A stretch of DNA of 64,000 nt from Nitrosopumilaceae archaeon (GCA_965208905.1 OZ242365.1:1600001-1664000), one strand, 5' to 3'; positions 7,999 through 58,517 are shown, counted from the first letter of the stretch. The notes: generated by a model from the letters alone, not told the origin. Program-made: numbers and translations.

Positions 7999-8046
7999 AT
8001 ATAAGGCGCAATATGGCATTTTCCACACCCATATAGCGCCTTAAAT
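7999..8046. promoter_or_regulatory. Back-to-back promoters for nurA-herA and radA
   Basis: CATATAGCGCCTTAAA (+) and CATATTGCGCCTTATA (-), 28 and 27 nt from the respective ATGs. Confidence 0.8.
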
Positions 8047-8068
8047 GGAACGACACTTTACACTGCCA

Positions 8069-9704: not shown

Positions 9705-11141
9705 CTATGTGGCTTTTGTACCCGAGCCGCCACCGGCCTTGCCCATGGCTGCGCCGGCAGCCCCGGCAGGCTTTGCACCAGCACCCATGCTACCCATGCC
9801 AAGTCTTCCCGCGCCCGCGCCAACTGCACCCTGCGCAGTCTGTATCATGCTGGTGAACGAGCCGGTAACCTGCTGTATAATCGTAGCAAATGCGCCCAGC
9901 GATACAATGGGTATGGCTATTGCCATCGACATTATGCCCGTGCCGAACATCCATACAACCAGTACGTCATTCCCATAGTCGGACAACAGCAGCCCGACCA
10001 TCAGCTCTGATGATATGCTGAACAGTATGGCCATCTCTATTGGGTATAGTATGGCGGCCGCCAGTGATGCGGGGCCGTATGTTGTCAGCACCTGCTTTAT
10101 CCTTCCGCCGCCGTGCATATGCTCCCAGGGCATCAGCATAAGCAGAAGGTATGCCGGCACAAACACGAGCATTGTGGCTGTTGCCACATCCACTGCGACG
10201 TTTGATATAATCATGCCCGTACCGGTCATTATTACGGCCTGCGCCTTTATCATGCCGAACAGTATGTTCACGATAAACTCGCCAAAGCCCCTGTACATCC
10301 AGTCGGCCGCATTGTCCCAGTGTGAGGTAATGGTCTCCCAGAAGGAGCCGGATACATCAACGGGTGGCGGTATGGCCTTTGTATTGCCGCCCCACTGCTC
10401 CAGCATGTATCGGACGCGCAGTTCCGGCTGGCACATCGCATCCAGTTTACCGGTCTTGTCCTGCATGAGCAAATACCGTGTTGCATGATAGTGTTTCTGC
10501 AGGGCCTCGTTGTCCGTATCCAGCACGCCGTTTGTATACCACTGCGGGGGGCACGGATACTCCCTGTTGCCGGAGTATGCGTTGTTTAGTATCTTTGTCG
10601 ATACCCACTCCGAACCGTCTATCGAATAATCCCATATGGGCGGTAGTATGAACAGTATCACAATGCACAGTACGCACCTTGATGGCAGGCTTGACATCCA
10701 CACGTATGCCCAGTGTGACCCGCGCGGGTCTGCGCCAAACCCCACCGTACCATAGTTTTCCCCCCGCCGCATCATGGTTTTTTTGGGCCTCATCATCGGA
10801 TGTACGCCGTCTGTGACCTCCTGTGTATGTTCGCCCTCCATTACATATGATGCCCTGTGTCCGAAACGGCCGGTTATCAGCCAGGCTATCGCGCCCAGGC
10901 CTATTATACCATACAGGACGGCCTCGCGCTGCTGCTTGAATACATGAAACAGCATGTTGCCGTTCTCCCCCGTGTGATCCAGACTGTACTCGAAGTCCGG
11001 CATGTCTATCAGTATATCTACCAGGTTTTCGACCAGAAAGTCCTTGATGATACCGGATATCGTGATTATGGTTACCACAAGCGCCAGTATGATTGCCAGG
11101 TCAAGCACGATCTGCACGACAAAGAGGATTGGCAGCGCCAT
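9705..11141 (-). CDS. VirB6/TrbL-like polytopic membrane protein (paralog 1)
   Basis: Many TM segments, Gly/Ala-rich tail; shares PPIWD and CxPxLRVxY with 58518..61202. Confidence 0.65.
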   Translation of the reverse strand: MALPILFVVQIVLDLAIILALVVTIITISGIIKDFLVENLVDILIDMPDFEYSLDHTGENGNMLFHVFKQQREAVLYGIIGLGAIAWLITGRFGHRASYVMEGEHTQEVTDGVHPMMRPKKTMMRRGENYGTVGFGADPRGSHWAYVWMSSLPSRCVLCIVILFILPPIWDYSIDGSEWVSTKILNNAYSGNREYPCPPQWYTNGVLDTDNEALQKHYHATRYLLMQDKTGKLDAMCQPELRVRYMLEQWGGNTKAIPPPVDVSGSFWETITSHWDNAADWMYRGFGEFIVNILFGMIKAQAVIMTGTGMIISNVAVDVATATMLVFVPAYLLLMLMPWEHMHGGGRIKQVLTTYGPASLAAAILYPIEMAILFSISSELMVGLLLSDYGNDVLVVWMFGTGIMSMAIAIPIVSLGAFATIIQQVTGSFTSMIQTAQGAVGAGAGRLGMGSMGAGAKPAGAAGAAMGKAGGGSGTKAT

Positions 11142-11416
11142 ACCGTATCACATATGGTTGATCCGTTTTTGGGTTACTAAAAATTAGTTCTTTTGGAGTT
11201 TGTTGTTTGTCAAGTCTGCGCAATCTCTACACATCACAGGATTCACACCTCAATAATCGGCATACCGTGAAAGGGTGGTTTATCAGTCCCAAAAGTGGGT
11301 CCCACTAACATATAATCCGTGAAGGGCCTATAGTTTGATGCTGCCAGGTGGCCATCCAAGAGTCGCGCAGTTGGCTTTTTCGCGCTCCTTTGGTCCACGC
11401 GCCTTCACCCCTAACG

Positions 11417-12847: not shown

Positions 12848-13591
12848 TCAGGTAGCATCTTTGATAGCCTTGGCCAGGTCCTGTCTGCGCAGCCTGACCG
12901 AGACGGTCGAGACTGCGGCCGCATCGGCAATCTCCTGCTGCGTTACCCCACAGTTGTGTGCAGCACATACGGTATACAGGGCCGCCGCAGCCAAGGTAGC
13001 GGGGTCTTTGCCTGACATCTGCGACATCACCGACTGCAATAGTTCAACCGCCTTGCGCAGTATTGTCTCCGGCACCTTACAGGATGTGGCAATACTACTG
13101 ATGAATGCTGCCGGGTCCGGGGGCGGCACGGACAGCGACAGGCCATTGACCAGAACGCCATAAATGCGCTTTACCTGCCCGGGTTTTACGGCCGCCACCT
13201 CGCAGATCGACTTTGTAGTACGGGGTACGCCTTCCAGCCTGCATGCCAGTGTAACCAGCGCGGCTGCAAAAGCTCCACGATGCCAGCCGCGGTTCAGCCC
13301 GTGCGCGTTGGCATTTGTGTTTAAGGAAACTGCCCTCCTATATGCGATATCGGGCACGCCACACTTTGTACATATTGATTCAATTACGCCTATCATTGCC
13401 CAGTTGGGACGGCTTATCTTCCTGTCCAGTTTGTGCAACCTCCACTTCCCCTCGAACGTCTTGGTACGGCCCATCTCCGACCATATCTGGGTGAGTGTTG
13501 GCGCGGCCCTGCGAACCTCCCCGCACTTCGTACACACCAGTTCACCATCATCCTCAAGTATACGACCTCCGCATCGACATGTCAGCACCAC
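12848..13591 (-). CDS. tfb: Divergent transcription factor B
   Basis: Zn ribbon CRCGG...VCTKCGEV, two cyclin folds (LNRGW...AAALVTLACR; GKDPATLAAAALY), C-terminal HTH; GTG start 13591 or 13588. Confidence 0.88.
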   Translation of the reverse strand: MVLTCRCGGRILEDDGELVCTKCGEVRRAAPTLTQIWSEMGRTKTFEGKWRLHKLDRKISRPNWAMIGVIESICTKCGVPDIAYRRAVSLNTNANAHGLNRGWHRGAFAAALVTLACRLEGVPRTTKSICEVAAVKPGQVKRIYGVLVNGLSLSVPPPDPAAFISSIATSCKVPETILRKAVELLQSVMSQMSGKDPATLAAAALYTVCAAHNCGVTQQEIADAAAVSTVSVRLRRQDLAKAIKDAT

Positions 13592-15219
13592 ACATTCCAA
13601 CCCCCGTCGAACTTGGTAAGGCCGCAATCCGCCCGGCTCACCCCACCGTGCCGTATCATGGCCGCGTTGACCGGCTCTGCCATGCCGCACCATATCACCC
13701 CCGTCCTTGATACGGGGGGAGGAATCGCCAGGCCGGTATCCCATGCGGTCGGCCCATCAGCGCTTATCGTGTATCGCATGGCATCACCCACATGCTGTAT
13801 TGTAGCAGTCACCACATCGTGATACGTGGATGATACAAGCGGCTCCAAAACCATGCCGTCCGCCATATATGTGACATTTCCGGTCATCGCCGGCATCCTT
13901 AATGTGATTGCCGCCGGCTCTCCCGTTGCGTCTACATGTATTGTGGAGCCCTCCCGTGTAATATCAACATCAAGTACCGACTCGTATGTGGTCGCATAGG
14001 GTATTACGAGCGGCGCATATGATGAGTGCATAACATCAAAGTCTACAGTTACAATGCTGCCAGGCGGACATATTGCGGCAGCCATATTGTCCGGGTCGCC
14101 AGACACCAGACTCATGCGTACGGCTCCATGGAAGCCGTTCCCATATACTATGCCGGTCGCGCCATCCCATGCGCGAACCACCATGTCCTGTATGCAATCA
14201 CCAGTACACATGTCATTGGGTATGGAGTGTATTGTTATCATATCAGATGTATTATGCGGTATTGTTGCCGACAATACGCCGCCTACCACATCATATGTGG
14301 CGTCCAACATTGTATTCCCCTGCCAGAATGTAAAAGTCCCGCCGAATGCCGGCATGACTATATGCAGCATGCCTCCACCATCGGATACGCCGCGTATTGC
14401 GGCCGTATTGTATGATCTTGATATGCTCTGAACCTGATATGTATCCGATGACCATGACACGCCCGACAGCGTTCCTGCGCGCATCACATTATCCGGGCCC
14501 GATACATCAACGCTTACCCCGTCCTGTATGCCGTACAGCATATCCATGTATCTCTTCTCAGAGTAGAACCAAAAAGAGTTCTGTATGTGTGGGTCGTATC
14601 GGTCGGCCACATACACGCCTGCCAACGGTATTGGCCTGTCCATATCTACCAAAAACCTGGCACTACCCTCGCCCACATACTGTATTATGTATAACCCGTC
14701 CACACTCTCCATGACGGCCACATCTCCCCATACCTCCCCCACACGTACGACCCCGGGCCCGTCAAGAAAGTCGTTTATGCCAAACAATACGTCATTTAGC
14801 GAGTCTGCAACCGTTCTTGAGTAGTCTACAAAGGGCGTATACATCATGTCATTATACAACAGCACGTATGTTCTTGTCGGTATGCCCGGAGGGGCCGAAT
14901 CATCAAGCAGGGGTATGTCGTGTATAGGGTCGCCCGTAATCTCAAAGGCCGTATCCGGTGAGAATACCACGTCTGGGGGCATTTCCGTTGGCAGGCCGGC
15001 CAGTATGGTGTGGTCGGCTCGTACCACCCAGTACGGAGTCTGATTATGCAACACCGGCGCGATGAACTCCAGCTCAGCATAATAGCAGTATTGCCGCAGT
15101 GTATCGCATATCGTGTATGCGTGGGTTTCGGGCGCGGCGTCCATGCCCGGCTCCCAGTATGCGCCATGTGCAGCAAGGGGCATGCATATGCCAATTACCA
15201 CCAACAGTACATACTGCAT
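13582..15219 (-). CDS. Exported protein with degenerate thermonuclease(SNase)-like C-terminal region
   Basis: Signal peptide MQYVLLVVIG...; VVRAWDGAT, CPPGSIVTVDFD, GVIWC...VNAAMIRHG recall thaumarchaeal SNase-like proteins. Confidence 0.6.
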   Translation of the reverse strand: MQYVLLVVIGICMPLAAHGAYWEPGMDAAPETHAYTICDTLRQYCYYAELEFIAPVLHNQTPYWVVRADHTILAGLPTEMPPDVVFSPDTAFEITGDPIHDIPLLDDSAPPGIPTRTYVLLYNDMMYTPFVDYSRTVADSLNDVLFGINDFLDGPGVVRVGEVWGDVAVMESVDGLYIIQYVGEGSARFLVDMDRPIPLAGVYVADRYDPHIQNSFWFYSEKRYMDMLYGIQDGVSVDVSGPDNVMRAGTLSGVSWSSDTYQVQSISRSYNTAAIRGVSDGGGMLHIVMPAFGGTFTFWQGNTMLDATYDVVGGVLSATIPHNTSDMITIHSIPNDMCTGDCIQDMVVRAWDGATGIVYGNGFHGAVRMSLVSGDPDNMAAAICPPGSIVTVDFDVMHSSYAPLVIPYATTYESVLDVDITREGSTIHVDATGEPAAITLRMPAMTGNVTYMADGMVLEPLVSSTYHDVVTATIQHVGDAMRYTISADGPTAWDTGLAIPPPVSRTGVIWCGMAEPVNAAMIRHGGVSRADCGLTKFDGGWNVWC

Positions 15220-15253
15220 AGTAACGTATGCTATGAGAACCGTAAATAGGTTA

Positions 15254-15320
15254 CAGTGGTGGCGGGTATGCCGGGCCCCAACCACCAAGTGTGAAAACGG
15301 GATACCCTACCCCGCCCGGC
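15254..15320 (-). ncRNA. GCCGGGC pseudoknot small RNA
   Basis: Starts 28 nt after GCGCCTTAAA; GCCGGGC pairs with GCCCGGC in the loop of the UGGUGG-U-UGGG/CCCG-CCACCA hairpin. Confidence 0.72.
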
Positions 15321-15366
15321 TGGTTATACAAAGCATGGTTGCATTTAAGGCGCCATATGGCCAGGC

Positions 15367-20100: not shown

Positions 20101-20167
20101 ACCGTATAATGCATTTGGGGTTCGCAAAAAGGTTAACATTTTTGCGTTTGTGCGCGCATTATATGTC

Positions 20168-21288: not shown

Positions 21289-21504
21289 ATGGATGCGCTC
21301 GTACAATCTAGCATTCTGCACAACCTCCTCACACTCTTACTAACAGATACAGTAATGTGGACTATTGGATCACTTGCAATTCTCTTTGGGGCGACAATAA
21401 TAATCACTGTTGTGATAACCAGTGTTGGATATGAGTTATATTTTGCAAGTTCACAAGTTGTTATATGGGTTTGGATATACCAAACACTGAGAAATATCGT
21501 GTAA
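21289..21504 (+). CDS. Small membrane protein
   Basis: Highly hydrophobic 71-aa ORF. Confidence 0.4.
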   Translation: MDALVQSSILHNLLTLLLTDTVMWTIGSLAILFGATIIITVVITSVGYELYFASSQVVIWVWIYQTLRNIV

Positions 21505-24161
21505 AGGCAGCCAGATTTGTGGAGCGCTGGCGCGGTGAGACATATGAGCGAGGTGAATCACAGACGTTCTGGAATGAGTTCTTTGATATATTCAGTAAGG
21601 ACAGACGTCTGGTGGCCCTCTTTGAGAGACGGGCCCGCCGATTAAAGGGACGTGGTTTTGTGGATTTGTTCTGGCCGGGTAAACTAATTGTAGAACAAAA
21701 AAGTGCTGGCCGTTCCATACAGGATGCCATGAAGCAGGCAGAGGAGTATACCATCAAACTACCTGAAAATGAGATACCGCGATATCTGCTAGCGTGTGAC
21801 TTTGCCAACTTTTTACTAGGAGACCTTGAGGATGATACAGAGGAAGAGTTTACCTTAGAGGAGTTACCAGACAAACTACACCTATTTGGATTCATGACTG
21901 ATGATGCAAGGAGTGGTCCTGATGTTGACCCTGTAAACCAAAAAGCTACCGGTATAATGGGTAAGATATACGATGGGTTGGTGCGAAACAACTACCCCAT
22001 ACAAGACAGTGGGAAGATGCTAACACGGCTCGCATTCTGCATGTTTGCCGATGATGCAGGCATATTCGAGCATGGTACATTCAGACGATTGTTTGGAAAG
22101 TATGATGTGGAGTCTACGGGTGGAGCCATTACGCATATGTTTGAGATATTGAATACGCCCAAGGAGAAGCGCCAACATACACTACGTGATGAGTTGGCCG
22201 CATTTCCACACGTAAACGGTGACCTGTTCGCTGAAAACATAACATCTGTTAGTCTAGACATGGAGTTAAGAAAATTTTTACTTGAGGCCGATGGTTATGA
22301 ATGGTCCAATGTAAACCCGGCCATATTTGGCGGGATGTTCCAGTCGGTGATGGACGCTGGTGAGCGGCGCCATATGGGAGCACATTATACGACTGAAGAG
22401 AACATACTGAAGGTGATCAACCCCTTGTTCATGGATGAGTTGAGGTCTCAATTCGAGAAGATTAATTCAGAGAATGTTAACCAACGCGCACGACTTGAGG
22501 AGTTTCAGGAACATTTAGCATCACTAAAATTCTTTGATCCAGCCTGTGGAAGTGGCAACTTCCTGTCAATCGCGTACAGAGAGTTGCGCAAATTGGAGTT
22601 GAAGGTTATTGAACTATTGCATGATAAGAGGGTAAAGCGGCTTGATGTCACAGGACTATCAAAGGTTGACGTTCACCAGTTCTACGGAATTGAGATAATG
22701 CCATTCTCAGCCCAAATTGCCGAGATCTCACTTTGGATGACCGACCATCTAATGAATAAGGAGTTGGGTAGAATGTATGGGATAGCATACGCCCGCATAC
22801 CGCTCAAAAAATCGCCCAACATAGTATGTAATGATGCACTGGAGATGGACTGGAATGACATACTACCTGCACATGAATGCAATTACATTCTAGGCAATCC
22901 TCCATATGAGGGCTCCAAAGTCATGACTTCACAACAGCGTGAGCAGGTCCGGCGGATAGCCAACCTAGGCAGGTCCGGCGGCACTTTAGACTATGTGGCT
23001 GCATGGTGTATAAAGGCGGCCCGGTATACACAGGACAATCGTCATACACGTATCGGATTTGTCGCAACTAATTCAATAACGCAGGGGGAACAGGTAGGGC
23101 AACTTTGGCCTACACTATACAGTATGGGTCTAGACATTGAGTTCGCTTACAAATCATTCAAGTGGGATAGTGAGGCGCCCGGTATGGCTCATGTACATGT
23201 GGTGATAATCGGACTCGGAAGAGATGTGAGATGTCGTAGACTATTCCATACTGGTGAATATGAGCATATAGATGACAGTCCGCCAAGGATATCGCCATAT
23301 TTGTTGGGCGCCAACCGGGTGCGTGTAGTGCATGAGTCATACAAACCACTGAATGGTTTGTCGGACATGAGGATGGGTTCCAAGCCGATCGACGGTGGCC
23401 ATTACATATTTACCGATACCGAAAGGGAAATGTTTCTTCAAACAGAACCCAAAGCCAATCAATTGATAAGGCAGTATGTGGATGCTCGGGGATTTCTTCA
23501 CGGCAAACGCCGTTGGATATTGGCGCTACAAGAGGCTGAGCCAAACGTACTGAGAATGCTACCACGCGTAACAGAACGAATAAACCTAGTGAAGGCGCAT
23601 AGACTAGCAAGTAAGGCTCCATCTACAAGGGATTTGGCTGGTACACCAACATTATACCACCTTAACGTGTTACCGGAGAAACCTTTTCTGGCTATCCCGG
23701 AAGTGAGTTCGGAGAAACGCAAGTATGTGCCCATTGGGTATATCGAGCCTCCAGCAATACCGAGCAATCGCCTCATGGTTGTGTTAGATGCAAGTCTTGG
23801 ACTCTTTGGACTGCTTACATCCAAGATGCATATGACTTGGCTGAATTATGTAGGTGGTCGGTTGGAGACGAGATATACGTATTCAAAAGGCGTAGTGTAT
23901 AACACATTTCCCGTCCCGGACTCACCACTGAATGTCTTGGAGCCTTATGCTCAGGCAGTACTAGATGCACGTGCTGCACACCCAAAATCCACTCTGGCAG
24001 ACCTGTATGATCCTGATATAATGCCGCCGGATTTGTTCAAGGCGCATCGTAGACTTGATAAACATGTTGACAGATTATACCGGAAGGAACCATTCAGGTC
24101 TGATGATGGACGGATGGAGTTCCTATTGGCGCGGTACGAGGACATGATTCATGCTTCATGA
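21465..24161 (+). CDS. MmeI-family (type IIG/IIL) restriction-modification enzyme
   Basis: FWNEFF, VDLFWPG...EQKS nuclease; DPACGSGNF, GNPPY; C-terminal YNTFPVP...TLADLYDP. Confidence 0.92.
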   Translation: MGLDIPNTEKYRVKAARFVERWRGETYERGESQTFWNEFFDIFSKDRRLVALFERRARRLKGRGFVDLFWPGKLIVEQKSAGRSIQDAMKQAEEYTIKLPENEIPRYLLACDFANFLLGDLEDDTEEEFTLEELPDKLHLFGFMTDDARSGPDVDPVNQKATGIMGKIYDGLVRNNYPIQDSGKMLTRLAFCMFADDAGIFEHGTFRRLFGKYDVESTGGAITHMFEILNTPKEKRQHTLRDELAAFPHVNGDLFAENITSVSLDMELRKFLLEADGYEWSNVNPAIFGGMFQSVMDAGERRHMGAHYTTEENILKVINPLFMDELRSQFEKINSENVNQRARLEEFQEHLASLKFFDPACGSGNFLSIAYRELRKLELKVIELLHDKRVKRLDVTGLSKVDVHQFYGIEIMPFSAQIAEISLWMTDHLMNKELGRMYGIAYARIPLKKSPNIVCNDALEMDWNDILPAHECNYILGNPPYEGSKVMTSQQREQVRRIANLGRSGGTLDYVAAWCIKAARYTQDNRHTRIGFVATNSITQGEQVGQLWPTLYSMGLDIEFAYKSFKWDSEAPGMAHVHVVIIGLGRDVRCRRLFHTGEYEHIDDSPPRISPYLLGANRVRVVHESYKPLNGLSDMRMGSKPIDGGHYIFTDTEREMFLQTEPKANQLIRQYVDARGFLHGKRRWILALQEAEPNVLRMLPRVTERINLVKAHRLASKAPSTRDLAGTPTLYHLNVLPEKPFLAIPEVSSEKRKYVPIGYIEPPAIPSNRLMVVLDASLGLFGLLTSKMHMTWLNYVGGRLETRYTYSKGVVYNTFPVPDSPLNVLEPYAQAVLDARAAHPKSTLADLYDPDIMPPDLFKAHRRLDKHVDRLYRKEPFRSDDGRMEFLLARYEDMIHAS

Positions 24162-27286: not shown

Positions 27287-27400
27287 GCTATTATTATACG
27301 GCGGAGACGTTTTTGGATTATAGTCAGGGTGATGGCAAACCAGTGTACAAACTGGAATTCAGGTGCTACGCCCAGGCGGTCATCCGTGGCAGGAAAAACG

Positions 27401-30826: not shown

Positions 30827-30857
30827 CTCCTTAAAAGGGATGGGTATGTAATACCGC

Positions 30858-31376
30858 ATGAAAGGTACTATACGGGTGCAAAACATCATGGCACTCGCCA
30901 GCACGGGCCAAAAACTGGATCTAAAACATATAGCCGGACATATACCTGATGCCGTATATACAGATGACTTTCCAGGCATACGGTACCGCATACACGAGTT
31001 GAACTCCAGTGTGTTGTTGTTCCGCTCGGGCAACATAGTCTGCGCGGGGGCCAAGTCCGAAGAACATGTACACAGGGTATATGAGCATATATGCGATATA
31101 CTACGCAGACTCGGCTATGACACACAACAACCAAACATCACAATAACCAACATCGTGGCAACTGCAAACATCGGCCGCGGGCTGGACATGCAGTATGTCT
31201 CCGACCTGCTGCCCGGAGCAAGGTATGAGCCGGAGATGTATGCAGGCGTTACGTATCATGCCAAAAACAGGGTAGTCGCGCGCATACATGCATCAGGCAA
31301 GATAATCTTTGTCGGCGCCCGCTCCATGCAGGACATCGTAGATGCATACAACAACATACGCTCACTGCTGGCATAA
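30858..31376 (+). CDS. tbp: Divergent TATA-binding protein
   Basis: Two repeats: QNIMA..LDL..DFPG..LFRSGNIVCAGAKS and TNIVAT..YEPEMYAG..IHASGKIIFVGARS. Confidence 0.92.
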   Translation: MKGTIRVQNIMALASTGQKLDLKHIAGHIPDAVYTDDFPGIRYRIHELNSSVLLFRSGNIVCAGAKSEEHVHRVYEHICDILRRLGYDTQQPNITITNIVATANIGRGLDMQYVSDLLPGARYEPEMYAGVTYHAKNRVVARIHASGKIIFVGARSMQDIVDAYNNIRSLLA

Positions 31377-32383: not shown

Positions 32384-32451
32384 TGGTATGCATGTTTGTG
32401 GTGGGGAGACATCTCTGTAACCCTAAAACGAATCCTACCACATAACATATT

Positions 32452-34287
32452 ATGGATTTAAAGTCATTTCTTTCGGCCAAGTCAAAGAAAAGCACGCCCA
32501 TCACATATCAGGTGAACGGCATAAACTACAGAGCACTGTCACCGGACGACCAGCGCGAGCAGGAGGAGGCATTCCTTACGATACTGCGCTCTCTGGAGAA
32601 ACCCGTCGAGATAGCGCGCGCACCGCAGGGTGGTGTACTGTATGACGGCACCGAATACTCGCAGTACATGATATACTTTACATCCGAGCAGGACCTGGAG
32701 GTTCCGCTTCGCCGCGCAGGGTACTCACCCGTTCGGCTGGACAGGCCGTTCACGCACAATGTCAAACAGGAGTATGCAGACCACCTGCAACTGGCCGATG
32801 ACTCGCGCGTGCGCGTATACAACATATACGGTCTAAGGCACGGGCTGAACGAGACGGCCTGGATTATCAACCTGCCCTCGCACGAGATAATCACGCGCAT
32901 ATATCCCATGGAGCCATCAAAGGCAAGAAGCGAACTGACAAAGTTCATCAATGTGGGCGCCTCAAGGATGAACGACCCCACAATAAATTATGATGTGCAG
33001 GAGGCAATACAACTGCGCACGGCCATAAACAATGACGAGACCGGCATGGTGGAGGTATCGATACACGCACTGCAGTACGGCTTTGACGCAAAACATCTGC
33101 GGGAGGAGTGCAGAAACATGGAGCGCACATGCAGGCTCCAACAACTGCGATACACGACCGTGCGCGGCCTGCAGAGAAGGTTGCTTGAGGGGTGGGGCAA
33201 CTCGTTCATATTCGAGATTGGCTCGGCAGCGCTGGCATTCTTTCCGTTTAATTCCGCAGACTTGGTAGAGCCGGGCGGCGTCATACTTGGATACAACAAC
33301 ATGACCGAGACTCCGGTGGTGTATGATTATACGCGCAGGGTAAACTCAAACGTAACGTTTGTCGGTGAATCCGGCAAGGGCAAGTCCACGACCACAAAAA
33401 CATACCTGGACAACTTTCTGTCCCGCTCCACGCAAAACACGATGGTCACCATAATAGACCCGCACGGCGAGTATGTTGCACTCGCAGAGAGGTGGAACTG
33501 CGAGGTGCGCGATCTGGCCAAGCGTGACAATATGGGCCTGGATCCGTTCAGGATATTGGACAATCCATCCAACGCGGTCGGACTTTTGGCAGAGTGTACC
33601 GGCATGGATGATGCCGCAAAGTCCGTCTGCATATCCCAATGTGAAGGCATACAGTCCGTACACGACATGCATAAGACATTGGATACATCAGACTACCAGA
33701 AGGATGTATCAAGACGTGCGGCGGCATATCTTGCGCAGTTCACGTCATCCGATATCGCGGGGATATTTGAGGGAGATCCCACCGCCCCGCAGCGTGTAAT
33801 ATACACACTGCGCGGGGAGGACAAGACCAGGCTGAACGCGATGCTTGTATCGATGGTGATGGCGCGCGCCTGGCGCTCGATGCGCGAGGCCGAGACGCAT
33901 ACGCCAAAACTTTTCGTGATAGACGAGGGGTGGTACGTATCATCGATGGATGCGACCGGAGCAATACTTTCGGATATAGCCCGTTCGGGCCGCAAGGAGA
34001 ACGTGCATCTGCTGTTTTTGACCCAAGAGCCGGACGACATACTGAACAACCAGTACGGCAAGGATGTGCTGATGAACTCCGATACTACGTTTTTGCTGGG
34101 CCTGAAGCCCGCACTGGCCGACCAGCTGCAGTCGGTACTACATTTGTCGGATACCGAGAAGAAGGATGTCGAACGACTGGGTCTGGGTGATTGCATTCTG
34201 CGGGCCGGAGCCAACCGCATATACATGCACTGTACGCCCACTGCGCAACAGATGACGGCATTTACGACCAAGCCTGGTGATGTGTAA
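32452..34287 (+). CDS. VirB4-like conjugation/secretion ATPase
   Basis: GESGKGKS, IDPHGEY, FVIDEGW, RSGRK, TQEP. Confidence 0.85.
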   Translation: MDLKSFLSAKSKKSTPITYQVNGINYRALSPDDQREQEEAFLTILRSLEKPVEIARAPQGGVLYDGTEYSQYMIYFTSEQDLEVPLRRAGYSPVRLDRPFTHNVKQEYADHLQLADDSRVRVYNIYGLRHGLNETAWIINLPSHEIITRIYPMEPSKARSELTKFINVGASRMNDPTINYDVQEAIQLRTAINNDETGMVEVSIHALQYGFDAKHLREECRNMERTCRLQQLRYTTVRGLQRRLLEGWGNSFIFEIGSAALAFFPFNSADLVEPGGVILGYNNMTETPVVYDYTRRVNSNVTFVGESGKGKSTTTKTYLDNFLSRSTQNTMVTIIDPHGEYVALAERWNCEVRDLAKRDNMGLDPFRILDNPSNAVGLLAECTGMDDAAKSVCISQCEGIQSVHDMHKTLDTSDYQKDVSRRAAAYLAQFTSSDIAGIFEGDPTAPQRVIYTLRGEDKTRLNAMLVSMVMARAWRSMREAETHTPKLFVIDEGWYVSSMDATGAILSDIARSGRKENVHLLFLTQEPDDILNNQYGKDVLMNSDTTFLLGLKPALADQLQSVLHLSDTEKKDVERLGLGDCILRAGANRIYMHCTPTAQQMTAFTTKPGDV

Positions 34288-35586: not shown

Positions 35587-35676
35587 ACTGAGTATTGTAT
35601 TGGTGGCATAAAAGGGGTGGGGGCGTCAAGAAACGCAGACTATACAAAACCATCAACGTTGTGGGTTTAAGGGGAA

Positions 35677-35745
35677 GGGTGGCGGGTGTGCCGGGCCCGC
35701 ACCACCCAGACATGATACAACGAGGGAGAATAAACCCCGCCCGGC
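35677..35745 (-). ncRNA. GCCGGGC pseudoknot small RNA
   Basis: Starts 28 nt after GGCCTTAAA; promoter plus 5' end (~41 bp) identical to 15310-15351; hairpin GGGUGG-UG-CGG/CCG-CCACCC with GCCCGGC in loop. Confidence 0.72.
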
Positions 35746-35815
35746 TGGTTATACAAAGCATGGTTGCATTTAAGGCCACATATGACGTTAAACGTGGTGG
35801 CACCGTAAGTTAACC

Positions 35816-46187: not shown

Positions 46188-46398
46188 ATCTGGGAGCCGC
46201 ATATTCTTGAGCATGCGCTCGAACCACCACATAGTAAACCATTTACTATGCCCCAGACGGGTCTGAACTGTATAATAATCGGCGCTTGAAACACCTATAC
46301 AAGATTCCCAAAAAGGTGTAATTCCCGCATTCACCCAAACCCCGTCATACCTGCACATCTTGTGATAACCTTAAAACGTATCTGGCGAAAATAATAAC

Positions 46399-48861
46399 AT
46401 GAAGCCATTTCACAAGCTCCTCGAAGTCAGACCTGACGTGCGCGACGGGACGCTGGACCTGTCTGTATATGCGGCCAACCTCGGAGACGTAGTATCCAAG
46501 ATAGACAAGCCTGCCGCCAGAGAGTACCGCGACCCTGTACTGTTTAGAGAGATGACATACGAGACTGAAGGAATGCGCAAGGCATTGAACGATATTCGTG
46601 TACGATTACAGGAAGGCAGGGGGAACGGAGTGCGCCAGTTGGAGACTAGTTTTGGCGGCGGAAAGACGCACGCCATGATAGCAATGTACCACAAGTGCAC
46701 GGAGTGGAACGCAACACGTATAGCGATAGATTGCCAGTTTCTAGACACAGCCTATACGATATGGGGGGAGATGGAGCGCCAGTTAGACGGCACAATAACC
46801 AAGATGACTGGTCAGGTTGCGCCCTCCGGAGACAGAATCTACGAGCTGCTGTCAAACAGGGACAAACCCGTACTAATATTGATGGATGAGATATTCAACT
46901 ACATAAAGAGGGCGATTGCCGTAACGATTGGCAACTCTGATCTGGCGGCCCAGACAACCACATTCATGCAGAACCTCAACGGTCAGCTTGGCAGTCTGCC
47001 AAACGTATGCCTGGTGATGTCATTATCCAACCGCGATGATGTCCTCAAGGCGGACAACAAGACTGCGCGAACGGAGAACGAATATTACGAGAAACTACAA
47101 CGCATAGCCGGACGGCACCTACAACCTGTAACCATATCTGAGGATAATGACATATCCCATATTATACGCCGTAGGCTCTTCAAGACCGACGAGGGTATAA
47201 TATCAGACCGCGCACAGGACACAATACAGTATTGTATGGACAAGATGAAGGAGGGCGGCCTCATATCTGCCGATGATGTAAAGTCATACACCACGCGATT
47301 CAGCAACACATACCCCTTCACGCCAGACGTAATAGACATACTGAACAACAGGTGGGGGTCGTACCCAACCTTTCAAAGGACACGTGGTGTGTTGCGGCTA
47401 TTGTCGCTGGTTGTACACTCAATGCTGAAATCCAAAAGAGGGTGGATTGCACCAGGCGACATAGACCTTTCTGTATCCGCGATACGGGGAGAGTTGCTCA
47501 AACATTCAGGAGACAATACCGCGAGTGTGGTTGACGCAGACATAGTTGGAAGTAGTGCGTGGGCTAGGAAAGCGGACGGGGATACGGGCGTGCGCTGTGC
47601 AACAAGCATATTCATGTACTCGTTTCCACCCAAGATAGGTCATGGCGCAACACTTGAGGAGGTAAAGCGCGCCTCGTTCACGGACCAAACATCACACTGG
47701 GTTGCGGGTGACTCGGTGGGCAAACTAAAACGGCGCTGCTTCTATCTGGAAGAGACTGATGAGGGAATGTTGTACTTTGACATTAACCCCGGCATCAACC
47801 ACATGATAGACCAGGCCAAGCGGAACGTAACTGACGCTGCCGTACATGATGCGGAGCGACATCTGTTGGACGGGGCGAGGGATGGCGGCAGGTTTGTCAA
47901 CATACACATATGGCCTGATGAGACCGAGGCGTACAATATACCGGACAGGCCGGTTTTACAGTTGATAATATGCAAGAAGAACAACCCGGAGTGGTGCAAG
48001 AGGGTGGTAGACGGAACGAACAAGTCACGCCGCACAAACATGAACGGTCTGATATTTGTGCTTCCCACGGATGGAATTGTGCTAAATGACATGTTACGTT
48101 TACAGTTGGGCGCAGAGTCCGTACACTCACACATGAAAAATACGACAGAATATACATCCGCACGACGCTCATACGTAAACTCGGAGATTAATCGGGCTAG
48201 GGAGGTGATGGGTGATGAGTTGTGCAAAAAGTACTCGGTGGTGTATGTACCGGACAGGGAGGAGGGCGTAATCAAGTTTAATGAATACCTGTTTAATCCC
48301 CGTCAGGATAGTAACATATCGCTGGATGTTCTGTTGTGGGAGCGTCTCGTACGGGACAACCAGATAGCGGAAAATATAGCTCCGGATATAGCCAGAGAGC
48401 ACGGGAGTGACGCCGATAGCGTATATGATACAATGATACGCATACCGGGCAATGCGATGCCTGCATCCTTGGAGGTTGTACGAAGGGCGTTTGAGACTGA
48501 AGAGGTGGAAGATGGGCCTGAACCGGAACCCACCACACCCGCAACGGGTGGTTCAATCTGGGGTGGATTTTCGCCTGGTGAGAGGCCTGTTGAGCCGGAA
48601 CCTCCCGAGTCAGAGGCGACGCATGAAAGGATGGTATACACAGATGTGCTTGATGCAGTAGGAGTGGCTGATATTCGTAGCATACTTTGGGCGCCACAAA
48701 AACTATCTCTTAATGGATTTACCTGTAATATAGACAAGCGTCCTGATGGAATGTATGATGTGCGTCTGGAGATGAGCGGGAAGATACCTGATAGTTTTGT
48801 ATCTACCATAAGGCCCACCAACCGGGGAAATGTGGAGATAGATGGCGGCTGGGACGAATAG
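46399..48861 (+). CDS. DUF499 AAA+ ATPase
   Basis: YAANL, FGGGKTH, LILMDE, IIRRRLF, YPF, FQRTRGVLR. Confidence 0.9.
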   Translation: MKPFHKLLEVRPDVRDGTLDLSVYAANLGDVVSKIDKPAAREYRDPVLFREMTYETEGMRKALNDIRVRLQEGRGNGVRQLETSFGGGKTHAMIAMYHKCTEWNATRIAIDCQFLDTAYTIWGEMERQLDGTITKMTGQVAPSGDRIYELLSNRDKPVLILMDEIFNYIKRAIAVTIGNSDLAAQTTTFMQNLNGQLGSLPNVCLVMSLSNRDDVLKADNKTARTENEYYEKLQRIAGRHLQPVTISEDNDISHIIRRRLFKTDEGIISDRAQDTIQYCMDKMKEGGLISADDVKSYTTRFSNTYPFTPDVIDILNNRWGSYPTFQRTRGVLRLLSLVVHSMLKSKRGWIAPGDIDLSVSAIRGELLKHSGDNTASVVDADIVGSSAWARKADGDTGVRCATSIFMYSFPPKIGHGATLEEVKRASFTDQTSHWVAGDSVGKLKRRCFYLEETDEGMLYFDINPGINHMIDQAKRNVTDAAVHDAERHLLDGARDGGRFVNIHIWPDETEAYNIPDRPVLQLIICKKNNPEWCKRVVDGTNKSRRTNMNGLIFVLPTDGIVLNDMLRLQLGAESVHSHMKNTTEYTSARRSYVNSEINRAREVMGDELCKKYSVVYVPDREEGVIKFNEYLFNPRQDSNISLDVLLWERLVRDNQIAENIAPDIAREHGSDADSVYDTMIRIPGNAMPASLEVVRRAFETEEVEDGPEPEPTTPATGGSIWGGFSPGERPVEPEPPESEATHERMVYTDVLDAVGVADIRSILWAPQKLSLNGFTCNIDKRPDGMYDVRLEMSGKIPDSFVSTIRPTNRGNVEIDGGWDE

Positions 48862-51484
48862 ACTCATTGGTACGATAATACCAATAAACGAGATATCAAA
48901 GGGTGGAGCCGCAGAGAAGAACAAAAGTCGTAATAGAATCAACAACTTACATCGGTGGTGGGCTTCGCGGCCCACCACAGTATCCCGCGTAACGGCATAT
49001 GCGGCGCTTGTAGACCCACCAATAGAGGAGCATAGAGAAATGATACGAAACATGTGCGATTATGATAATACAACCAAACCTGATCGTATACTAGTACGGG
49101 ATGCCGCGCGCAAGCGAATCAAAGAGAAATGGAAAACCCCACCAAAGGTGTTGGACCCGTTCGGCGGCACGGGAGCATTACCATTTAGCGCCGCATGGTT
49201 GGGCTGTGACTCTCATTCTATAGATTACAATCCGGTTGCTGTACTTATACAGAAATGCGCATTGGAATATCCACCAAAATATGGACAGAAGTTAAAGGAA
49301 GATGTCATACAATATGCCAAAAAGGTTGGAGACATGTTGAGGGAGCGCACTGCACAATACTACCCAAGCAGCGACCACTACGGATACATCTGGTGTCGCA
49401 CTGTTCAATGTAATTGTGGATACATAATACCACTTGTACACAACTATATGCTCTCAAAGAGGCAGGGGGTTCACTTCAGGCCAGCAGCCAAGGGCGGCGA
49501 GATCAGGTTTACGGTTCACGGTAAGGGTGAGGTACCTCACCCACAAGTGGGCGGCAATCGCGGCATGTGCATGAGTTGTGGCCGCCCATACACCTACCTT
49601 GAATTGCGGGACATGATATGGGAGCATGGCTCTGCAATGATGTGTGTCGCAGTGTCGGCTCCAAAACGCGGTAAGGGTAAGACCTTTAGACCGGCGAACG
49701 CAGACGACGCGGCGCTGTACGAATCGTGCTCGGCACAACTTGCAGAGCGGCGCGAGTGGTTCCGCAAAAAGCATGGTGTGGATCCAATACCGGACATGCC
49801 AATCCACACGCCGGATGAAAGGGAGTATAGGCGCGGCGGGCCTGCGTGGCATGTGCTAGGTGTGGTCACCTATGGGCAGACGCGATGGTCACACCTCTTC
49901 AATGACCGCCAACCACTCTGCATGACAATACTATTGGAGATATTGCGCGAGGTCGAGTCGGACGTAGTCGCGCAGCATGGTCGTGAACGCGGCACCGCAA
50001 TCGTGACTTACCTCGGACTGATTATGGACAAGGTACTGGAAAACTACTGCCGGCTATCTCGATGGCGATCAGACAGTAGTGCGATTGTGGACTGCTTTGC
50101 GCAGCAGAACATAGACAAAAAGTGGGACTATGCGGAGGCGGCGCCGCACATATTCTGGCAAAACACCACTGAGTCGCTCCTGGGGGGCATGGGGGCCGCG
50201 CTTTCTAGTGACGTGGTCTGCGACGTACAGCGCGCCTCGGCGACCAAATTACCCTACGAAGACGATATGTTCGACGCGGTCTGCACTGACCCGCCTTACT
50301 ACGACTCCATGCAATACTCTCGCCTAGCTGACTTTTTCTACGTCTGGCTAAAGTGCTCTGTCGGCCATCTACACCCTGAACTTTTCCGGGGTGCACATAC
50401 GCCAAAAAAACACGAGGTGGTAGAGAATGAGGGCAACGCCATAGGCGCGACTACGGACTGCGAGGTGCGCGACAGTGACGGCTACCTAAAATTGATGTCA
50501 CAGTCACTACGCGAGATGCATCGTGTGCTGAAGCCTGGCGGCGTACTCGTACTTGTATACGCGCACAAGACCACCGAAGGATGGGAGACTCTCATCAAGT
50601 CAATACTGGACGCGGGCTTTACAATAACAGCGGCCTGGCCCATTGACACAGAGAACACATCGCGGATGGGGTCCCGCGTTGGCGGGCAGGGCACCGCGTC
50701 ACTCGCCTCATCAATATACATGGTGGGTCGCAAGTGGGAGCGCAGGCCACCAGCCGAGTGGCGTATAGTACAGCGTGAATTCCGCGAGCACACATGCGCG
50801 ATACTGGATAAGTTAATCAAGGCCAACATAACCGGCTCGGACTTTTACATCGCGGCCATCGGCTCCGCTCTGGAGATATTCGGCAAGTATAAGGCGGTGC
50901 GAATGATAGACGGTGAGACAATCGATGTGGGCTTTATTCTAGATGAGATACGCAAATTGTGCTCGGAGTTCATAGTAAAGACACTCACGACTGGTAAGGG
51001 TGGAAACATAGACAATCTCACCAAACTATACATTGTATGGAGATGGTCATATGGTAACCAAAAAGTACCATACGATGATGCGCGCAAACTCTTCACCGGT
51101 GTGGGACTGAACCTGGATGACTATACAGGTAAGGGTGGTATCGTAAAGATAAAGAAAACGAAATCGAAAAGTGAGGTACACTTACTAACGCACCAGGAGC
51201 GCGACGATGAGATACAGATTAAAGGCAGTATAGACGTAACACATCAGGCAATACGTCTACTAAATGCAAACAAACGTGATGAGATGAAGGAATTACTCCT
51301 CAGTACAGGTAATACGGGTGATGAGTTCAACGCAGTCTGTAAGGCAATCGTACAGGCGGGCCGCTCGCAGGGCGGACAGACGGACGAATCAAGGGAGATT
51401 GAACAGTTCTGGTCTGGGCGGCAGGGAGAGGTATACGAATCAACGCCGGGACAGCAAAGGATGACTGATTATAATGAAGTTTGA
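48842..51484 (+). CDS. DUF1156 adenine methyltransferase
   Basis: LHRWWASRP, DPFGGTG, TDPPYYD, ITAAWP. Confidence 0.9.
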   Translation: MAAGTNRLIGTIIPINEISKGGAAEKNKSRNRINNLHRWWASRPTTVSRVTAYAALVDPPIEEHREMIRNMCDYDNTTKPDRILVRDAARKRIKEKWKTPPKVLDPFGGTGALPFSAAWLGCDSHSIDYNPVAVLIQKCALEYPPKYGQKLKEDVIQYAKKVGDMLRERTAQYYPSSDHYGYIWCRTVQCNCGYIIPLVHNYMLSKRQGVHFRPAAKGGEIRFTVHGKGEVPHPQVGGNRGMCMSCGRPYTYLELRDMIWEHGSAMMCVAVSAPKRGKGKTFRPANADDAALYESCSAQLAERREWFRKKHGVDPIPDMPIHTPDEREYRRGGPAWHVLGVVTYGQTRWSHLFNDRQPLCMTILLEILREVESDVVAQHGRERGTAIVTYLGLIMDKVLENYCRLSRWRSDSSAIVDCFAQQNIDKKWDYAEAAPHIFWQNTTESLLGGMGAALSSDVVCDVQRASATKLPYEDDMFDAVCTDPPYYDSMQYSRLADFFYVWLKCSVGHLHPELFRGAHTPKKHEVVENEGNAIGATTDCEVRDSDGYLKLMSQSLREMHRVLKPGGVLVLVYAHKTTEGWETLIKSILDAGFTITAAWPIDTENTSRMGSRVGGQGTASLASSIYMVGRKWERRPPAEWRIVQREFREHTCAILDKLIKANITGSDFYIAAIGSALEIFGKYKAVRMIDGETIDVGFILDEIRKLCSEFIVKTLTTGKGGNIDNLTKLYIVWRWSYGNQKVPYDDARKLFTGVGLNLDDYTGKGGIVKIKKTKSKSEVHLLTHQERDDEIQIKGSIDVTHQAIRLLNANKRDEMKELLLSTGNTGDEFNAVCKAIVQAGRSQGGQTDESREIEQFWSGRQGEVYESTPGQQRMTDYNEV

Positions 51485-54400
51485 AGACCTGAAAACAGGC
51501 ATAATGATAGAAGGTCCACAGTGGGATGGACCGGTCACATTGGAGAAGTTTGAGAGCATAGGCGAGCGTACAAAATTAACAACACGACGCGATGACGGTA
51601 ACACAAGAACGGTACGTGTAAATCTCAAAGATATACACATGTATAATACACAACACGGTACACCGTGGCGTACAAGGGCCGCCGTTGATATGCTACGCCA
51701 CAAATATGCAAGGGGTAGTGGGGCAGATTATGGCCGGATGGACCCCCTTCCGCACCAGATACAGTCCATATACCATATAACCGGCCAGTATGATGACATA
51801 AGATTCCTACTGGCAGATGAGCCTGGTGCAGGCAAGACCGCAGTAGCAAGCAGTGTAATACGCGAGTTGCAGCTACAGGGACGCGCAGACCGCACACTGA
51901 TAGTTACACCCGCACACCTCAAATACCAGTGGAAGGAAGAGTTAAAGCGCTTTGTAGGCTTGAAATCACATATAATTGAGGGCAGTACTGCTGACCCATC
52001 AGACCCGTGGCCAGACGACCACAATATTCTGATAACATCAGTTGACTATGCTAAACGGGACAAAAGACTCGCCACTCTACAACATACGGACTTTGACTTG
52101 GTGGTTGTGGATGAGGCTCACCACATGAACTCATCAGGCAAGACTGTAAGCACCAGATACAAGTTGGAAAGGGTGCTCTCGACAAGAACCACACACATGA
52201 TATTCCTGACGGCAACTCCGCACCGCGGCAAGTCTGAGAACTTCCGTTTGTTATTAAACCTGTTAAAGCCAGAACTATTCCACGATGGTCTTACACCCGA
52301 AGAGGTGGCAGTCCGCAAGGAACCGATGTTTCTGCGCCACCTCAAAACAGATATGACAGATATGGAGGGTAGGCCAATATTCAAGGCCCGTACAGTGAAA
52401 TCTCTCAAATACGAGATGTCCATACCCGAGCAGGGAATGTACAGGATGGTGAGTAACTATGTGCGCATACAGCATCAAAGATTGGTAGCGCAGGGAGAGA
52501 AGCTCGCACCATTCGTATTACTACTGATACAGAAGCGTATGGCATCAAGCACATATTCACTTCAAAAGACATTGGAGAGACGCAGGGACAAGCTCAAGGA
52601 CTATCTGGAGAGGGACGTATTCCCAAGACCCAATCTGGAGTACGAAGAAGTGGACGACGAGTACGACGAGGATGACCCCGAGCATGAGAGGCGGGATGAC
52701 GAATTAAGTGGAATAACCGCATCGCGCACACCAGAGCAACTAGAGGAAGAGATATCTGAACTGGATGACTTAGTCAAGGCCGCAAACGAGGCCGCAACCA
52801 CCAAGCCAGACAAGAAGCTCGAAAAACTACTCGATATTGTAAATAATCTTGGTGGAGACAAACTGCTGATATTCAGTGAGTACAAGGATACCATAGAATA
52901 CCTGGAGAAGAATATTGGTGAAGATACATGTCGTATTGACGGTGATATGAAGCAGGAGCAGCGCGACAGGGCCGTGCAGGAGTTCAAAGACAAATACCGC
53001 ATAATGTTGGCCACAGACGCCGCGCGTGAGGGAATGAACATGCAGTTCTGCAATGTGATGGTGAACTATGACTTGCCTTGGAGCCCCATAGTACTGGAGC
53101 AACGCATGGGCCGTCTGCACAGATACGGACAGAAGAAGGATGTCATGATACACAATATGATAGCAGACAATACAATAGAGGGGGATGTACTTGAAAGACT
53201 GTCTGATAAAATCATGGAGATTCAAAAACAGTACAAGGCAGTAGATGTTATCGGCACGATACTATCGGAGGTCAACATGAAGGATATTATGATAAAGTCG
53301 ATAGAGGGACGCGCTGCTACCGGTGTGGATGATCAGGTACAACAGGCCAAGAAACAATTGGAACAGGCACAAAAGATGCTGGAGCACACACCCGTAGACC
53401 GGGACGCGGCACTACGTGCAAAGGAAGAGATTGACGCGAAGCGTGTAGATGGTGAGTATCTAAAGAAGATGATGTATGGGATATTTGAGGGGCTTGGTGG
53501 GAAGATAAAATCCACCAATACAAAGACCACACTACAAGTACCTGATGAGTTGCGCGGTGGGCCGTTCAGGCGCAAATCCGAATCACTCGTCGGGCCGATA
53601 CAACAGATACTGTCAAGAGGCACAAAACATTACAAGCATGTAGAGTCTTGGGTTTTGGATAACTGTAAGGGAGATTTGTTAGGTGGGTCCGTGTTTGCTG
53701 GTAAGCACGCGGGACATATAGTATTTCATACGACTGAATTGAAGGATCGCGCAGGCAAGACCGTCGAGGTGTTGGTGCAGGCACATCACATTCACACGGA
53801 TGGTACAGTGCAATCCGTACATCCGGATATATTGAGTGAGTTGGAAGATGTTGGCGGTGATGCCGGGAGTAAGCCGGAGGCTAACGTGGTTGATGCGGCA
53901 TACAACGACGCGCAGGTGAGGGCAAACCAACTAAACGAAGATGAAAGGGAGTTTTGGAGGCGTAGAATCGAGACAGTGGATATCAGTAGTGGTTTGGAGA
54001 ATCTACGAATGGAGATGGGGGAGGTTATGAATGGAACGCCTGAATGGAGGGAGATGGATGAAAGAAGAAAGAGGTTGGAAGAATGGGAGGATAGCATGGA
54101 GAGGCGCGCCAGCACGGACAAGTTGTATGTGGAGGAGCCCGTTTTGATAGGATGGGTAAAGGTTGTAAAAAACAAGGAAACACAGGATACGGAGATGCGC
54201 GGCATGAACCGCAGTATGGAGATAGAACGCAAAGAGGGTTTCATACCCGAGGATGTCTCAAACAAGCGCGGCCTTGGATACGACATACTGTCAAAACATC
54301 CGGATGGCCGGGAGCGTCATATAGAGGTGAAGGCGCGGTGTTCATTTACAGGCATACAGTTTACACCCAACGAGGAGAAGGCGCGTCTTAACGACCCACA

Positions 54401-58460: not shown

Positions 58461-58517
58461 AGACAACCGGGCCTACGGGCGGTAACCCAAAAACGGGGCG
58501 CCACACAATACTACAGT

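Follow-up and report, generated by a model that had tools for sequence, protein, structure and literature searches.

Which promoters serve the transfer and surface genes of a foreign element in an archaeal chromosome, and which factors might read them? The question is raised by a stretch of 64,000 nucleotides (the window) from a Nitrosopumilaceae archaeon (GCA_965208905.1, OZ242365.1), in which the gene for a VirB4-like conjugation ATPase is preceded by a 14-nt motif that recurs ahead of other genes. The genome is a single contig of 2.21 Mb with 45.6% GC, of which the window comprises bases 1600001-1664000; it lies inside a region, at roughly 1.57-1.78 Mb, where GC reaches 47-54% as against about 44% in the rest of the genome. 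This region is a foreign, conjugation-type island of roughly 190 kb. An initial annotation had assigned its transfer and export genes to a TATA-less promoter class, set apart from the promoters of repair and replication genes, and had proposed a separate conjugation regulon. That regulon is real: the motif, here called class 2, stands at a fixed position and in a fixed orientation before its genes and marks transfer and pilus machinery together with secreted and surface proteins.

The six strings quoted in the initial annotation are all present at their places in the window, among them an identical 15-mer ahead of both VirB6-like genes (GTAACCCAAAAACGG). The consensus GTAAYCCWWWAACG (GTAAYCC-WWW-AACG, a 14-mer) has three matches in the window, compared with a mean of 0.01 in 100 shuffles, none of which reached three, and 15 matches genome-wide, compared with none for the reversed control. 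Of these 15, 13 fall between 1.53 and 1.78 Mb, and a further GC-rich patch, at 559.9 kb, accounts for one more. When 13 of the sites are made into a position matrix, which is therefore circular for those 13, 20 hits score at least 17, and 18 of the 20 fall between 1.53 and 1.78 Mb. When the threshold is lowered to at least 14.5 there are 24 hits, of which 19 are in the island region; downstream of every one of these, counting 35-37 nt from the first base of the motif, an open reading frame (ORF) begins with an ATG on the strand of the site. A relaxed 12-mer is not enriched genome-wide on its own (86 matches, 114 for the reversed control) and is thus informative only in combination with a rule on the distance to the ATG. 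With an ATG at 31-37 nt, it defines 24 units in this genome (G000), of which 20 belong to the island region, one stands at 559.9 kb, and the remaining three are found in other places. As 21 of the 24 are in islands, this speaks for a distinct promoter class that is confined to foreign DNA and absent before recognisable host genes.

The same words emerge from a screen that presupposes no motif, in which the 7-mers between -40 and -18 of each ATG with an ORF of 60 codons or more were compared with the regional background. For the island, it returns GTAACCC, TAACCCA and TGTAACC, as well as CCTTAAA, CGCCTTA and TATAGCG; for host DNA, it returns TTAAATA and TTTATAT, plus k-mers of a G+C-rich repeat. 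In host DNA at 0.6-1.5 Mb, a strong excess of 7-mers such as GCTTTAC, TTACGCG, CGCAAGT, AGTGAAA and TTGGAGG is seen 18-40 nt before ATGs, and probably stems from a dispersed repeat.

The canonical archaeal core promoter consists of a TFB recognition element (BRE) and a TATA box, read by TBP and TFB, as in the ternary complex from Pyrococcus woesei. Start codons were assigned here by ORF rules and not by a gene caller, and promoter positions are given relative to them. Genome-wide, host starts show an A/T signal at -30 to -23 (TTTAAATA, TTTATATA, CTTAAATA) and an A-rich stretch at -37 to -32; a Shine-Dalgarno signal is absent, so that most genes look leaderless. In class 2, a heptamer, (G/A)TAAYCC, occupies about -35 to -29 and abuts an A/T run of 5 bp at about -28 to -24, which is followed by CG. 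The A/T core, 24-28 nt before the start codon, fits the spacing of 28-29 nt given in the initial annotation. The description as TATA-less, on the other hand, has to be dropped, since no site lacks an A/T core of 5 bp where a TATA box would lie: the island runs (AAAAA, ATTAA, TTTAA, TAAAA) stand where the host has TTTAAATA or TTTATATA. A TATA matrix for which half of the host genes served as the training set gives class-2 sites a median of 1.8 bits, compared with 2.9 for the class-1 promoters described below, 3.3 for held-out host genes and -0.7 for random positions. The class owes its identity to the heptamer, placed where a BRE would be, and to the CG after the core. Class-2 sites resemble the canonical promoter in being oriented, in standing 22-36 nt before leaderless gene starts, and in having an A/T core at the TATA position with a conserved block directly upstream. 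The directionality is that of a BRE-type element, with 19 of 19 sites facing the gene here and 16 of 17 in a sister island of a congener (G316). They differ from it in that the A/T core is only 5 bp long and is flanked by C and CG, and from host promoters in that the block at the BRE position is GTAAYCC or AACC(C/G) rather than A-rich, is far more invariant, and is confined to islands.

The genes downstream form a coherent set (Table 1). The VirB4-like ATPase is about 25% identical to DUF87 proteins of Sulfolobus conjugative plasmids; VirB4 homologues occur in 105 of 401 genomes of the class, a tally that includes the unpublished genomes G282, G230 and G326. Another class-2 unit encodes a FlaI/TadA-like ATPase directly followed by a coupling protein. 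The FlaI-like protein also carries an intein signal (Pfam Intein_splicing, E = 3.7e-5; NCBIfam intein C-terminal region). The 478-aa membrane protein had no match in Pfam or NCBIfam; its look-alikes in the atlas are TraJ/TrbL clusters at 0.90, under the recognition threshold, which makes its likeness to VirB6 a weak lead. Five proteins of 208-874 aa encoded in class-2 units have N-termini resembling signal peptides, and because these begin at the predicted ATGs, they support those start codons. Several short class-2 proteins have a single N-terminal hydrophobic helix, one of them with a pilin-like start (RRPAISGLIVTLILIG), as judged from the hydrophobic profile only. A hydrophobic segment is present in 14 of the 19 class-2 proteins, as against 58 of the region's 269 other ORFs with 60 aa or more (Fisher p = 5e-6), a comparison in which the other ORFs have longest-ORF starts and may include non-genes, and in which some class-2 genes are paralogues. 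Two more of the 19 are the VirB4 and FlaI-like ATPases. The class thus stands mainly before transfer, export and surface genes, as had been claimed. Pfam/NCBIfam offered no family for 17/19 and 11/14 proteins encoded downstream of the motif. The exception already pointed out, a DUF499 defence gene with an intermediate promoter, is real as well: its site fits the relaxed class-2 core.

Table 1. Promoter sites, genes and basal factors in the window and the adjoining island (window positions unless marked as genome)
Feature	Position	Strand	Details
Class-2 promoter GTAACCCTAAAACG of the VirB4 gene	32417..32430	+	21 nt, then ATG 32452; first base to ATG 35 nt
GTAACCCAAAAACGG before both VirB6-like genes	58482 (+); 11163-11177 (-)		Exact string match
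Class-2 promoter GTAACCCAAAAACG	11164..11177	-	ATG 36 nt downstream
Class-2 promoter GTAACCCAAAAACG	58482..58495	+	ATG 58518, 36 nt downstream
Class-2 variant ATAATCCAAAAACG before the 874-aa gene	27308..27321	-	Position-matrix score 20.7; ATG at 35 nt
Class-2 variant GTAACCTATTTACG before the 545-aa gene	15241..15254	-	Position-matrix score 17.4; ATG at 35 nt
String GTAACCTATTTACGG from the initial annotation	15240-15254	-	Exact string match
ATAACCTTAAAACG before the DUF499 defence gene (ATG 46399)	46365..46378	+	Relaxed class-2 core; 34 nt to ATG
Palindrome CGCAAAAAGGTTAACATTTTTGCG, 24 nt, probable bidirectional promoter	20123..20146	both	In-frame ATGs 20168 (+), 20100 (-)
VirB4-like conjugation ATPase, 611 aa	32452..34287	+	Pfam AAA_10, TraG P-loop, DUF87
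Multi-pass membrane protein, 478 aa, VirB6/TrbL-like (weak lead)	9705..11141	-	8 hydrophobic segments
Second multi-pass membrane protein, 894 aa	58518..61202	+	26% identical to the 9705-11141 protein
874-aa protein, N-terminal signal-like segment	24662..27286	-	45% orthologue in G316 island with AAACCCATTAACG upstream
545-aa exported protein	13582..15219	-	G316 orthologue has ATAACCCTTTTACG upstream
FlaI/TadA-like ATPase	genome 1753300-1755375	-	In class-2 unit; VirD4 directly after
VirD4/TraG-type (TrwB/TraG) coupling protein	genome 1751097-1753355		Directly follows the FlaI-like ATPase gene
TBP1 (divergent TBP)	30858..31376	+	Preceded by CCTTAAAAGG at 30829
TFB paralogue, true start uncertain	12848..13744	-	Frame overlaps the end of the 545-aa gene
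Class-1 core GCGCCTTAAA (ccATATAGCGCCTTAAATGG) of island RadA	8036..8045	+	
Further class-1 cores	8000-8009 (-); 16111 (+); 28119 (+); 36891 (+)		

The motif is conserved where its surroundings are not. Within the genus, the exact 14-mer occurs six times in G153, four times in G070 and once each in G316 and G335, is absent from five other genomes, and has no reversed-control match in any of them; the matches in these congeners precede orthologues of the same genes. In eight orthologous pairs with congeners, from which two near-identical pairs were left out, the motif is identical at 105 of 112 positions (94%), as against 241 of 408 (59%) over 51 flanking positions. Of 21 query proteins, 16 have an orthologue, 31-77% identical, in the sister island of G316 (140 kb, 66% GC), and 12 of the 14 orthologues that have an upstream region of their own keep (n)AACC[C/G]-WWWW-AC[G/C] 33-39 nt before the start codon. 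The relaxed pattern has 17 matches in that island, and for 16 of them an ORF of 45 aa or more begins 33-42 nt further on, its N-terminus being hydrophobic in most cases; as the reversed control has seven matches there, the pattern alone is not rare, and it is the link to an ORF that counts. The core common to both diverged islands is AACC(C/G)-WWWW-AC(G/C). At 28 other VirB4 loci of the class (one of them in the unpublished G282), inspection found TTAAA(A) promoters flanked by C or G, and the class-2 motif at none of them; a class-2-type site is otherwise seen only before the VirB4 copy of G316, which is 77% identical. A second patch in G316 (G316:C1:1026017-1038315) has three core motifs beside a third homologue (1034602-1035396) of el_1689k, one of the island TFBs.

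Replication and repair genes were said in the initial annotation to use (GCG)CCTTAWA instead, and this class, here class 1, is borne out. Of the 19 GCGCCTTAWA matches in the genome, 16 fall between 1.53 and 1.78 Mb, as against an expectation of 2.1, and the motif extends to the consensus ccATATAGCGCCTTAAATGG (ccATATAGCGCCTTAWA). It precedes the island genes for RadA, HerA, a trypsin-like protease, an MCM-containing operon, ribonucleotide reductase and TBP2, the second island TBP. Both classes have a short, C-flanked A/T core, and an AACG(T) ending is frequent; the main difference between them is in the 6-9 nt that precede the core, at the BRE position. To judge from promoter spacing, several genes seem to begin further downstream than their longest ORFs do: at 8069 for RadA (8045-9043), 18 nt downstream for Mre11, and at 58518 rather than 58428 for the VirB6-like protein. 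The element at 20123-20146, described in the initial annotation as bidirectional, is indeed a perfect palindrome with in-frame ATGs on both strands, each 21-22 nt from a half-site GTTAAC(A/C)(T/C)TTTTTGCG. It probably serves two divergent genes, whose longest-ORF starts are both probably too long.

If the island has promoter classes of its own, it may also supply their readers. It holds two of the four TBP genes and four of the nine TFB genes in the genome, plus a truncated TFB-like gene. The TFB frame at 12848..13744 overlaps the end of the 545-aa gene, so the two are probably co-transcribed. In both TBP1 and TBP2, the Thr of the conserved VCTGAK motif is replaced in both repeats, and TBP1 lacks both Phe residues of repeat 2 (EMYAG and RIHASGK, compared with EQFPG and LLFASGK in host TBPs). 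TFB el_1689k has TTLANRY where its two closest host TFBs have VTIRNRY or VTIRNRC. From the solved TBP and TFIIB complexes, we take the changed residues to be putative DNA-contact positions. The truncated TFB-like protein (176 aa; genome 1688664-1689191, minus strand; L006:4661-5191) is encoded in a class-2 unit beside a full TFB gene. Its features are a C-terminal helix-turn-helix and a single TFIIB cyclin repeat, weak and below the cut-off (E = 2e-4), and it lacks a zinc ribbon; homologues with 38-39% identity occur in G070 (two, one of them 2.4 kb from the TBP2 orthologue) and in the G316 island.

As readers shared by all motif-bearing genomes, most of these factors fail. The truncated TFB is absent from G153. 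TFBs el_1666k and el_1670k are members of the host's 348k family, at 58% and 47% identity, and have homologues at 50-60% in all five genomes tested, including the motif-free G117, and el_1612k and el_1689k have homologues only in G316. TBP2 fares differently. Genes of its type (E <= 1e-35) are found only in six genomes of this genus among 301 of the family. The core AACCCWWWAACG has 13 matches in this genome, 11 in G316, seven in G335, six in G070, four in G153 and one in G443 (reversed controls, 0-4), and none in G113, G258, G270 and G117; among these ten congeners, the six positive genomes are exactly those with the TBP2 family. This co-occurrence fits TBP2 as a putative part of the reader.

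Our favoured explanation, to which we give about an even chance, is that the 14-mer would be the core promoter of about 20 leaderless transcription units, selected by basal factors that the island itself encodes. The heptamer would sit where TFB normally reads the BRE, with the A/T run at the TATA position. That the heptamer has the place and length of a BRE, and that only the A/T core varies, fits base-specific reading of the flanks combined with the tolerance of a TBP in the middle. The divergent TBP2, possibly together with an island TFB paralogue, may thus select class-2 promoters much as an alternative sigma factor chooses late or transfer genes, while replication and repair genes would use class 1 as a second private class. 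We infer binding by TBP and TFB, and the paralogue involved, from sequence.

Several observations weigh against this explanation. The position matrix, as noted, scores some of the sites from which it was built. Class-2 sites are weak on the host TATA matrix and yet not unreadable, and the presence of the motif before the DUF499 defence gene shows that the functional split, though strong, has exceptions. A homologue of TBP1 with more than 40% identity is missing from the five congeners searched. No island TFB is common to all motif-bearing genomes, G153 having only host-type TFBs and one weak extra hit; this weakens a model in which a TFB reads the BRE by itself, and keeps alive the possibility of an operator, discussed below. 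In G153 (4 matches, 4 in the reversed control) and G443 (1 and 3), motif counts do not exceed the control. As the motif and TBP2 lie on the same islands, physical linkage alone would equally give the co-occurrence pattern across ten related genomes. Finally, the contacts of TBP are in the minor groove, and recognition of a flanking heptamer is not known for it; a TFB or another protein would still be needed to account for GTAAYCC.

Alternatively, host TBP and TFB may read the weak A/T core, and the flanks, GTAAYCC and ACG, may bind an island repressor or activator that overlaps the BRE and TATA positions and keeps the transfer genes silent until induction. Binding over BRE and TATA is the usual mode of archaeal regulators, the A/T core alone scores intermediate on the host matrix, and G153 keeps the motif without an island-type TFB. 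Also in favour are the many island ORFs, small ones included, that have no known family, and three small coiled-coil proteins that are themselves encoded in class-2 units and recur in G070 and G153. We nevertheless consider an operator unlikely, if the most serious competitor, because the motif is not a dyad, because it varies in position by no more than 1-2 nt and never lies on the strand opposite its gene, a constancy that a core element requires and that exceeds the needs of an operator, and because a DNA-binding regulator that co-occurs with the motif was not identified.

The motif might also be nothing but the consensus of a donor lineage, readable by any TBP and TFB, with the two classes reflecting promoter strength or the history of the modules. 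The shared features of the two classes, a short C-flanked A/T core and often an AACG(T) tail, agree with this, as do intermediates such as the DUF499 promoter and TAACCCTTATATAC, the promoter of TFB el_1689k. Yet the heptamer is kept on the same gene set in an island of 66% GC whose proteins are only 31-77% identical, and the motif is at 94% identity where its flanks are at 59%; both point to selection on a specific sequence rather than inherited drift, and make common ancestry an improbable explanation. That the sites are chance matches, or copies of one duplicated segment, is scarcely credible. The sites at 1730131 and 1778436 are copies of one segment, and some of the genes are paralogues, but the flanks of most sites are mutually unrelated and the excess over shuffled and reversed sequences, in the window as in the genome, is far too large.

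The borders of the island are provisional, placed from GC and gene content only. Host-type genes appear on the right near 1781.9 kb (proteasome alpha) and on the left at about 1580-1584 kb (CdvA, acetyl-CoA synthetase). The tyrosine integrase family PF00589 has no match anywhere in the genome, although all control genomes matched, and tRNA genes were not found at the presumed borders. Four tRNA genes lie within the island (L005:528-679, 8832-8904; L007:18105-18179): Ser-ACT, which is unusual, Arg-TCG, Met and Ile-GAT. The island contains diverged second copies of RadA, MCM, Rad50/Mre11/HerA, ribonucleotide reductase, TopoVI-A, PriL and Hjc; its RadA is 90% identical to the copy at 2.19 Mb, its MCM 35% identical. 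It is rich in insertion sequence elements and in restriction and defence systems, and also has a TadC-like T2SSF gene. Within the window, the defence cargo comprises a cluster of DUF499, a DUF1156 methylase and an SNF2/NOV_C helicase (46399-54584) and, at 21465-24161 and 62031-63811, an MmeI-type restriction-modification enzyme, a NotI-like endonuclease with a Dam-type methylase, and Dcm with Vsr.

A conserved 7-bp GCCGGGC/GCCCGGC stem characterises a unit of some 60 nt that is present four times, at window positions 15242-15353 (-) and 35667-35776 (-) and at genome positions 1591851 (+) and 1755503 (-). None of the four contains an ORF, and each is preceded, at a distance of about 22 nt, by a class-1-type promoter of its own (CATATGGnGCCTTAAATGC), which makes the unit a candidate small RNA of the island. 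A scan of the window with Rfam at the gathering score returned no match, and a search with the unit itself nothing significant (best, int-alpA, E = 0.28). We considered whether the class-2 promoter belongs to a larger module with this GC-rich stem-loop upstream, and dropped the idea, as the unit is present at only 2 of 21 sites.

Bacterial phages and integrative and conjugative elements (ICEs) may encode alternative sigma factors with their own late or transfer promoters. The island resembles these in that a mobile element brings a promoter code and, plausibly, its reader; it differs in using the archaeal TBP/TFB machinery, with a reader that is only a candidate. Among archaea, Halobacterium has multiple TBP and TFB paralogues, some of them on megaplasmids, which have been proposed to serve different promoter classes (PMC2121645, PMC3261711). 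Here, too, extra basal factors are carried on accessory DNA and have changed putative DNA-contact residues, and the idea is likewise that pairs of factors choose sets of genes. The difference is that two sharp promoter classes are here tied to gene modules directly from sequence, in an integrated thaumarchaeal island of the conjugation type.

The nearest relatives in gene content are the thaumarchaeal ICEs, for which VirB4, VirD4, VirB6, TadC, FlaI, pilins and a TFIIB homologue are described by Krupovic et al. (2019, PMC6563490). The island shares with them VirB4, the coupling protein, TadC-like, FlaI-like and pilin-like proteins, the VirB6-like protein (as a weak lead) and TFBs. From these ICEs it differs in being much larger, in carrying TBPs and second copies of replication and repair genes, and in having no detectable tyrosine integrase. 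A passage in Abby et al. (2018, PMC5797428) states that the ICE TFIIB “could alter the promoter specificity”. A cognate promoter is not described in the relevant passages of either article, and the words promoter, TATA and TBP are absent from the text of Krupovic et al. Our literature search, which covered the main text of PMC6563490, returned no described thaumarchaeal ICE promoter or element-borne TBP.

TFIIB homologues are known from archaeal mobile elements, thaumarchaeal ICEs in particular, and the island provides concrete candidate target promoters for them. Two promoter classes can be assigned to functional modules and are conserved between islands of 50% and 66% GC, and one of them tracks a divergent TBP family. 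As a sequence tag, the class-2 motif can also point to transfer and surface genes outside any recognisable family and help to delimit islands that have no integrase. Going further, and only tentatively, since we would sooner doubt than assert it, the giant island may possess a private transcription system, in which its own divergent TBPs and TFBs read two core-promoter codes, one for replication and repair and one for conjugation, pilus and surface genes. TBP2 would then be specialised for a short, C-flanked A/T core, and the truncated TFB could act as a brake. If true, such a system would match, in archaea, the sigma factors that mobile elements encode together with their early and late promoters.

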